Below, piece by piece: positions 2,433-3,700 of a stretch of DNA of 13,511 nucleotides (position 1 is the first letter of the stretch; every line of letters starts with the position of its first letter). The translations under genes and the position numbers were made by a program. The DNA is from a virus (Duplodnaviria; Heunggongvirae; Uroviricota; Caudoviricetes), in IMG/VR virus record IMGVR_UViG_2606217106_000016; one strand, written 5' to 3'. The notes beneath the pieces are model-generated. The model was not told the origin of the DNA, searched no databases, and saw nothing but the letters and a program-made list of their open reading frames with translations.

Positions 2433-2887
2433 ATGAAACTGGAAGATTTACCGAAATACTACTCCCCAAAATCCCCTGGCCTGACCGATGCATCGGCCTC
2501 AACGTCAAAAGATGCGCTGAGTATCACTGATGTGATGGCCGCGCAGGGCATGACACAGAATCGGGCTGAGATGGGGTTTTCTGCGTTCCTTGGGAAAATG
2601 GGCATTAGTATGAATGACAGAGAGCGGGCAACAGAATTGCTGACAGAATATGCACTCAGTCGGTGTGATCGCGTGGCGGCGTTAAGAAAACTCCCGGCAG
2701 AAATAAAACCGGCAGTAATGCGTATTATGGCTTCGTATGCGTTTGAAGATTATGCCCGTAGCGCGGCGAGCAAAAAACAGTGCCCCTGCTGTCACGGAAA
2801 AAAATTTATTGAAAGCGAGGTTTTTACAAACAAGATCCAGTATCCGGATGGTAAGCCGCCAGTGTGGGCAAAGTGCACAAAAGGCGT
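2433..2887 (+). pseudogene. Q: Lambda-type late antiterminator Q, 3'-truncated (about 150 of ~205 codons) at the junction with an IS256-family fragment
   Basis: MKLEDLPKYYSPKSPGLTD...DVMAAQGM... parallels lambda Q (MRLESVAKFHSPKSP...DVMAAMGM). The Zn-finger region CPCCHGKK...AKCTKG is cut after about 2884; the following residues of track ORF 2433..3044 are antisense transposase sequence. Confidence 0.7.
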
Positions 2888-3700
2888 GTATACTGTGTTG
2901 ATGGCATCCGGGAAGCCTTTCAGGCCATCCACACAGGCGATGAGGATATCGTTCAGACCGCGGTTTTTCAGTTCAGTCAGCACATTGAGCCAGAACTTCG
3001 CCCCTTCATTTTCGGCCAGCCACATACCCAGCAGTTCTTTCTGACCTTCGATATTGATGCCCAGTGCCAGGAACACCGATTTGTTGATGACGCGACTGTC
3101 CTGCCGAACTTTCAGGACGATACAGTCAAGATAAACAATGGGGTAAACAGCATCCAGTGGTCGGTTTTGCCATTCTACAACCTGCTCCATCACGGCATCG
3201 GTAACCTTTGATATCAGTGCCGGTGAAACATCTGCGTCATACAGTTCTTTGAACGCAGCAGCTATCTCACGGGTGGTCATCCCTTTGGCATACAACGAGA
3301 GGATCTGGTTATCCATCCCGGTAATACGGGTCTGATTTTTCTTTACCAGTTGTGGTTCGAAGGTACCGTCACGATCGCGCGGAGTACGCAGTTCCAGTGG
3401 ACCGTCGCCTGTGATAACGGTCTTTGTGGAAAAACCGTTGCGGGAGTTAGCTCCTGGTCTGGACTGATTTTTCTCATACCCAAGATGGTGTGTCATCTCT
3501 GCATTGAGAGCGGCTTCAACGCTGAGCTTTTTCAGCAGCCGATCAAACTGACTGAGGTCTTCAGGGGTTTTGAGGTTTTTGGCCAGTTCGTTAGCCAGAG
3601 CCTGTAACTGTTTTTCGTCCATAAATTAACCTTCATTTGATGCTGGATTGAACATATCAAAATCAGGCAATTACACAAATCTATGTACAGGCTCAAGCAG
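2885..3700 (-). mobile_element. IS256-family (mutator-type) insertion sequence fragment: one terminus plus 5' ~245 codons of the transposase; right boundary approximate
   Basis: Minus-strand ORF reads MDEKQLQALANELAKNLKTPEDL...LGYEKNQSRPGANSRNG...TREI...YPIVYLDCIVLKVRQ...CVDGLKGFPDAINTVY, a typical IS256-family transposase N-terminal two-thirds. Similarity ends at about 2888, exactly where Q similarity ends. The terminus beyond the start codon at 3622 is not mapped. Confidence 0.7.
2888..3622 (-). pseudogene. IS256-family transposase, 3'-truncated (about 245 codons retained)
   Basis: Part of track ORF 2792..3622 (minus). The last ~31 residues of that ORF are read-through into antisense Q sequence. 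Confidence 0.7.

Follow-up and report, generated by a model that had tools for sequence, protein, structure and literature searches.

Has the late antiterminator gene of this prophage been cut short by an insertion sequence, and would the genes that lie behind it then be beyond induction? The question comes from a sequence-only reading of the locus, which described a Q gene "decapitated" by a fragment of an IS256-family element and a late operon that was likely uninducible. We have analyzed the entire 13,511-bp contig JNRB01000093.1 (assembly GCA_000704465.1), taken in reverse orientation and referred to here as the window. The host of the prophage remnant is the Escherichia coli stool isolate 2-460-02_S3_C1. 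Our analysis indicates that the window very probably contains a decaying lambdoid prophage that has lost the C-terminus of Q and the late promoter pR' through a join with the interior of an IS1414 copy.

The Q/IS1414 junction and the deleted segment

The gene content of the window is that of the late region of a lambdoid prophage. A DUF968 gene (999-2048) and rusA (2061-2417) are followed, from position 2433 on the plus strand, by the ORF of the Q remnant (Q' in what follows), and 3' of the lysis genes there are tail-fibre fragments, a ykgJ-family gene and genes for an integrase and an excisionase that belong to another element. At the other end (1-563) the contig starts inside a copy of IS421 (IS4 family) that adjoins a 92-aa ORF. 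In E. coli 2-460-02_S3 and its close relatives the prophage is integrated at the potB / ykgJ-family site. The cryptic lambdoid prophages of E. coli share this late layout (DUF968, rusA, Q, tRNAs, nanS-p and S-R-Rz) and also the processes of decay found here, namely IS insertion, deletion and frameshift. IS elements have been reported in the Q-S region of Stx2a phages (PMC10462455); unlike the Stx prophages with an IS-disrupted Q-to-S region, the window has no stx gene.

The Q' ORF (2433-3044, stop codon at 3042-3044) has 203 codons. Its first part (2433-2891, plus strand), recognized by DNA identity and by PF03589, corresponds to 459 of the 822 nt of a lambda-type late antiterminator gene and has 99.8% DNA identity to the genes coding for WP_000762902.1. 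When aligned to the intact 822-nt gene of O157:H7 PV15-279, Q' was identical as far as ...GGCGTGTAT at 2891 and unrelated from there on, so that exactly 153 of the 273 codons are Q-derived. In the same way, a megablast of positions 2433-3000 against 5426 complete E. coli genomes gave "antitermination protein" genes that matched the query over 1-459 only. The ORF list and the alignments show that the remaining 50 codons and the stop (2892-3044, plus strand) are out-of-context codons, antisense to IS1414 and fused to Q'.

The other partner of the junction is a fragment of IS1414, a member of the IS256 family (2889-3694, minus strand), that retains 806 of 1315 bp with the transposase-proximal end. 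Compared with annotated IS1414 copies, positions 2889-3700 were 99.9-100% identical over 806-812 bp, and the IS-like ORF is thus not some other, non-IS gene. A full copy (L001:992-2306) has 1315 bp, 30-nt imperfect terminal inverted repeats (GAGCCTGT.../...ACAGGCTC) and a flanking 8-bp target duplication, ACGCAGCA. Against this copy the fragment starts with TATACTGTG... at 2889 and reaches the terminal ...ACAGGCTC at 3694. Only one inverted repeat, as defined on the full copy, is present (3665-3694) and the partner of the target duplication is absent. Nothing is left of the distal 509 bp, of the second inverted repeat or of transposase codons 245-402. The full-length transposase, of Mutator type, has 402 aa; that of the window is cut at codon 244 and continues as a chimeric ORF of 276 aa (2792-3622, minus strand), in which 244 IS1414 codons are followed by 32 that are antisense to Q' and the Transposase_mut profile PF00872 is matched over positions 16-246 of 379 (E=4.8e-76). 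The fragment shares sequence and a terminal inverted repeat with IS1414, an element with a Mutator-type DDE transposase, but it is a dead fragment with a single end and, lacking the other end and 158 transposase codons, should be immobile. IS1414 is known to embed the EAST1/astA peptide. A search of the retained fragment with this peptide as query gave no convincing match (best local score 33).

The pairwise alignments to the intact Q and to the full element fix the junction to the base: the two homologies overlap by three nucleotides, TAT, at 2889-2891. Both genes are truncated at the same point, as the sequence-only reading had proposed. It had placed the end of the Q similarity at about 2884, in the Zn-finger region, and the end of an antisense IS256-family similarity at about 2888; the Cys-rich zinc region and the IS family were correctly identified, while the two ends lie 7 and 1 nt away, at 2891 and 2889. 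The far end of the feature, given as 3700, is set by the terminal inverted repeat 6 nt earlier, at 3694. The word "decapitated" refers to the wrong end of the protein, as Q keeps its N-terminus and loses the C-terminal 120 residues.

Downstream of the IS1414 fragment, the last 88 nt (3695-3782, plus strand) of a gene for a 237-aa AraC-type HTH protein mark the original target of the element. This remnant aligns without interruption to the 3' terminus of the HTH gene of O26:H11 11368 and OkiPb01678, whose product matches HTH_AraC and HTH_18, and IS1414 is located after nt 626 of its 714. In many prophages, that of O26:H11 11368 for example, the HTH gene sits directly upstream of the tRNA-Ile/Arg/Arg cluster. 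The undeleted order, Q273 – 65-aa ORF – AraC-type HTH – tRNA-Ile, was found in 14 complete E. coli genomes with a composite query made of the 3' half of Q plus pR' from one genome and the HTH gene from another. In comparison with OkiPb01678 (L015), the window lacks positions 1661-3208, that is 1548 bp, which include Q codons 154-273, the Q-to-ORF intergenic region with pR' and its pause, the 65-aa ORF and nt 1-626 of the HTH gene. A deletion running from inside the IS into Q, with the removal of the Q C-terminus and of the native pR'/qut region, had been suggested from the window itself, and the intact relatives bear this out.

We propose that IS1414 would have inserted into the AraC-type HTH gene that closely precedes the phage tRNA cluster and that, in a second step, illegitimate recombination at the TAT microhomology may have joined the interior of the element to Q codon 153, removing 1548 bp of phage DNA together with 509 bp of IS1414. 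A join located inside the IS, with 3 nt of microhomology, points to illegitimate recombination rather than to a transposase-made deletion at an IS terminus. None of the 5426 complete E. coli genomes showed the expected intermediate, in which IS1414 would be complete at the HTH site, so that the order of these events is one that we infer. The two sides might instead have been brought together by ectopic recombination between two prophages or two IS copies. Lambdoid prophages are mosaic, E. coli genomes hold many IS1414 copies and several Q-tRNA modules and, when compared with OkiPb01678, the left arm (up to 2891) was 91.8% identical and the right arm 99.3%. We consider this origin unlikely all the same, given that the gene order on both flanks is the one of a single prophage late region, known in its undeleted form from the complete genomes mentioned above, and that a one-step deletion explains the join most simply. 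Whether it arose by simple deletion or by ectopic exchange makes no difference to the functional outcome.

Promoters, terminators and genes of the late region

In the comparators, a promoter (TTGATT-16-TAAATT) starts 6 nt past the Q stop and is followed by TG.C..AACGATGGG; an AACGAT pause element is present in this region and T-tailed hairpins appear within ~100 nt of the promoter. When this core was compared in register by script with the -10 and sigma-dependent pause core of lambda pR' (NC_001416), 20 of 23 positions were identical (MAFFT misaligned the regions). The intact relatives therefore carry a core like that of lambda pR', the AACGAT pause element included, and the window is without it: no pR'/qut-like core was found in the window at <=3 mismatches or by motif search. 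A simple promoter scan misses pR' even in the intact comparator, where TTGATT/TAAATT reaches 8/12, below the threshold. Lacking pR'/qut, the window would offer no site at which a Q could load, whether its own or that of another prophage.

Three tRNA genes (3811-4060, plus strand) were detected by ARAGORN, Rfam and RefSeq, with a CAT anticodon, Arg-TCG and Arg-TCT. The first of them (3811-3886) is called Met by ARAGORN, while the equivalent gene of the relatives is a tRNA-Ile in RefSeq. Just before the cluster, the pattern scan gave a candidate sigma-70 promoter, TTGATT-17-TATTAT (3772-3800, plus strand). The sequence-only reading had singled out this site and the sequence is indeed there, but as a pattern it is not above chance (7 sites in the count against 7.5 expected). 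On the other hand, five loci, preceded in some cases by the HTH gene and in others by a DNA methyltransferase gene, share TTG and TTATTAT without change and at the same spacing, which is in line with a promoter dedicated to the tRNAs. Between the tRNAs and nanS-p there are two known prophage sRNAs, placed back to back: STnc100 (4170-4378, plus strand; Rfam RF02076, 176.7 bits against a gathering score of 47) and AgvB (anti-GcvB; 4379-4438, minus strand; RF02702, 56.6 bits against 56), the latter with a minus-strand terminator at 4403-4386. The tRNAs, STnc100 and AgvB would still be made from their own promoters.

Terminator-like sites were enriched in the window, 17 against 6.8 +/- 2.8 in shuffled sequences, and the three strongest of the scan, all on the plus strand, coincide with those that had been noticed at 4347, 4464 and 8672. 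The first, at 4347-4368, is the 3' hairpin of STnc100, the second (4462-4485; 10-bp stem with 7 GC pairs and a T-run) is just upstream of nanS-p and the third (8668-8700; 15-bp stem and T-run) is between R and Rz. Four intact plus-strand genes make up the rest of the late region. These are the nanS-p-type sialate O-acetylesterase (4582-6516, 644 aa; identified by DUF1737, SASA and DUF6645 and by the names of its RefSeq homologues), the class II holin S (7232-7447, 71 aa), the endolysin R (8044-8577, 177 aa) and the Rz-type lysis protein (9220-9687, 155 aa; PF03245), the last three being as long as their counterparts in the intact comparator. As none of these four genes is shortened, any lysis defect would be regulatory.

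Late antitermination is well established in lambda. By this biology, nanS-p, S, R and Rz would stand behind strong terminators with no Q-dependent passage through them, and the usual response to induction would be gone. The late genes are thus predicted to be uninducible and the remnant lysis-defective. In Stx2a-positive STEC strains nanS-p increased by 1-2.4 logs on mitomycin C, as measured by qPCR (PMC10462455), which fits late-operon control, a control that the locus in the window should have lost.

It could be argued that the late genes are still partly inducible without Q, by read-through from an N-modified pR or from local promoters that were not recognized. In lambda, N-dependent read-through makes Q mutants leaky, and the ORFs of S, R, Rz and nanS-p are all complete. 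Strain 2013C-3181 has the same IS421-orf92 junction as the window, in the form of a simple IS421 insertion between hokD and the 92-aa ORF, and to the left of IS421 it has the full early region including cI/cro; the early region may therefore survive in the strain of the window as well. Against this, IS421, the IS1414 fragment and no fewer than three strong terminators stand in the way of such transcripts, and between the 4462 terminator and nanS-p the pattern scan gave no promoter-like site that exceeded chance. We thus regard residual induction as improbable, and a late region that does not respond remains the preferred prediction.

The Q lesion is one of several in this element, which shows phage gene order with the modules for virion production missing, as in defective (cryptic) lambdoid prophages. 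A second deletion junction appears at ~9780-9890, where the lysis-region homology (up to ~9780) gives way to the 3' portion of a side-tail-fibre gene (from ~9890). At the same chromosomal site, strain ST866 has terminase, head and tail genes amounting to ~22.7 kb in between, all of them absent from the window. With every morphogenesis gene lost, no virions would be formed whatever the state of Q. The tail-fibre fragment (9838-10533) contains a periodic repeat of 45 bp (15 codons); shifted by 45 or 90, it is 58% identical to itself, and each of its strands offers long repetitive ORFs. In rusA, a run of Gs (2387-2392) has 6 Gs instead of the 5 of intact relatives; the extra G results in a frameshift, a product of 118 aa against 124 and a broken ATGA stop/start overlap with Q. 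All the related contigs that cover the site have the 6-G run. It is not the rusA frameshift annotated in OkiPb01678, where the run has 5 Gs. Past ~11875 the window contains an integrase (12020-13138, minus strand) and an excisionase-like ORF (13107-13385, minus strand). A sister contig (L005, region L005:1-1779) is 99.99% identical up to window position 11875 and continues with ABC-transporter genes, potB being the annotated neighbour at the prophage site in other genomes. The divergence at this point indicates a second integrative element in the isolate of the window that the sister does not have.

The product of the Q remnant

The ancestral gene of Q' was a lambda-type Q, and the structures of lambda Q (PDB 7UBM, 7UBN and 4MO1) provide the reference for what has been lost. 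The body of Q-lambda is made of residues 61-113 and 153-207, with the helix-turn-helix in the second part, and the zinc-ribbon arm of residues 114-152; arm and helix-turn-helix both touch the Q-binding element, QBE (PMC9388147). The intact 273-aa Q is collinear with Q-lambda (7UBM) over both halves (E=1.1e-41), residues 1-113 aligning to 1-113 and residues 182-273 to 116-207, and the 87 positions of PF03589 match both halves. Lambda Q has 207 aa and two CxxCxG motifs, compared with 273 aa and four in the intact family. In the Q of the intact relatives (L002:4001-4822) a Cys-rich insert of ~68 residues lengthens the zinc-ribbon arm beyond that of Q-lambda. The four CxxCxG(x)G motifs of the arm resemble the DnaJ central domain, although the PF00684 match (29.8 bits) is below the cut-off.

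Q' has retained the N-terminal match to PF03589 (Antiterm; E=1.2e-22, profile positions 2-87 of 87) and lost the C-terminal one. By phmmer its residues 1-123 align to residues 1-124 of Q-lambda (7UBM chain Q; E=2.4e-26) and no alignment extends further. The homology covers Q-lambda residues 1-113, and by this homology Q' keeps the torus-forming N-terminal segment and the first two body helices. Of the zinc ribbon only CPCC (residues 117-120) is left, the three further CxxCxGxG motifs of the intact relative lying past the breakpoint. The equivalent of Q-lambda 153-207, with the C-terminal helix-turn-helix, is absent; instead of continuing as Q, the residues after 153 (154-203) are translated from antisense IS1414. 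In contrast to lambda Q, the copy in the window thus ends at residue 153, has neither a complete zinc ribbon nor the DNA-binding helix-turn-helix, and has no pR' to act on. With one of four CxxC motifs and no helix-turn-helix, Q' would almost certainly be unable to load at a QBE, a point made moot by the deletion of the loading site itself. An exact-protein look-up of the 203-aa chimera gave no match, the gene callers having taken the antisense 276-aa ORF instead.

We have also considered whether the lesion could be of use to the cell. The loss of late expression might have been selected as a disarming of the prophage, with holin and endolysin silenced and the tRNAs, AgvB, STnc100 and nanS-p kept on local promoters. 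Separately, Q' keeps the segment of the torus at the RNA exit channel (equivalent to Q-lambda 1-44), might bind RNA polymerase and could in this way interfere with the Q of a co-resident prophage. Both ideas seem to us very unlikely, and decay is the reading that we retain. Finally, there is a negligible chance that the 203-aa ORF codes for a Q variant that is short by nature and still functional, for although the Antiterm domain is matched in full and short Q proteins occur in other families (e.g. a 123-aa PF06530 protein in O26 11368), the C-terminal PF03589 copy of the intact Q is gone, residues 154-203 read antisense IS1414, the helix-turn-helix and three of the four CxxC motifs are absent and no pR'/qut follows downstream.

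Spread of the lesion and its significance

The 276-aa chimeric transposase is filed under E. coli 2-460-02_S3_C1 and two sister accessions. An exact look-up of this ORF matched nine contigs, and the eight that were listed belong to four assemblies from NCBI, two metagenome assemblies from ENA and two read-set assemblies from Logan. They were 99.5-100% identical to the window. The 60-mer over the Q/IS junction was present in all eight and the one over the IS/HTH junction in all those that reach far enough. Identical junctions in eight contigs from separate assemblies indicate that there is no misassembly. Elsewhere the searches were negative: neither junction occurs in the 5426 complete E. coli genomes, from which the specific lesion (IS1414 interior fused to Q codon 153) is therefore absent, and the 26-nt junction gave 0 matches in the species-representative genomes (one genome per species, so that only the representative genome is covered) and 0 in the JGI metagenome contigs. 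This absence, and the fact that the window is a short-read draft contig with one end in an IS, could suggest a chimeric contig made at a repeat, but such an artefact can be practically discarded with both 60-mers recovered as described, a 3-nt overlap that is not long enough to mislead an assembler and a join located inside the IS, away from the repeat boundary.

Three of the four NCBI assemblies have consecutive accessions, and the three accessions of the protein are filed under one strain name, which suggests that they are probably colonies from one sample. The lesion is real and confined to one near-clonal lineage, from which all the known copies come.

The Q/IS1414 lesion is a case of ordinary, well-understood prophage decay and not a new system, and its significance beyond annotation is slight. 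For annotation, the 276-aa "Mutator family transposase" of the database and the unannotated 203-aa ORF are both to be taken as products of chimeric pseudogenes, and the locus should be scored as a non-inducible remnant in counts of prophages or of nanS-p in this lineage. Beyond that, it offers a clean example, resolved to the base, of how the late switch of a lambdoid prophage would be lost in a single step both in cis (pR'/qut) and in trans (Q), with no damage to the lysis ORFs or to the cargo of tRNAs and sRNAs.
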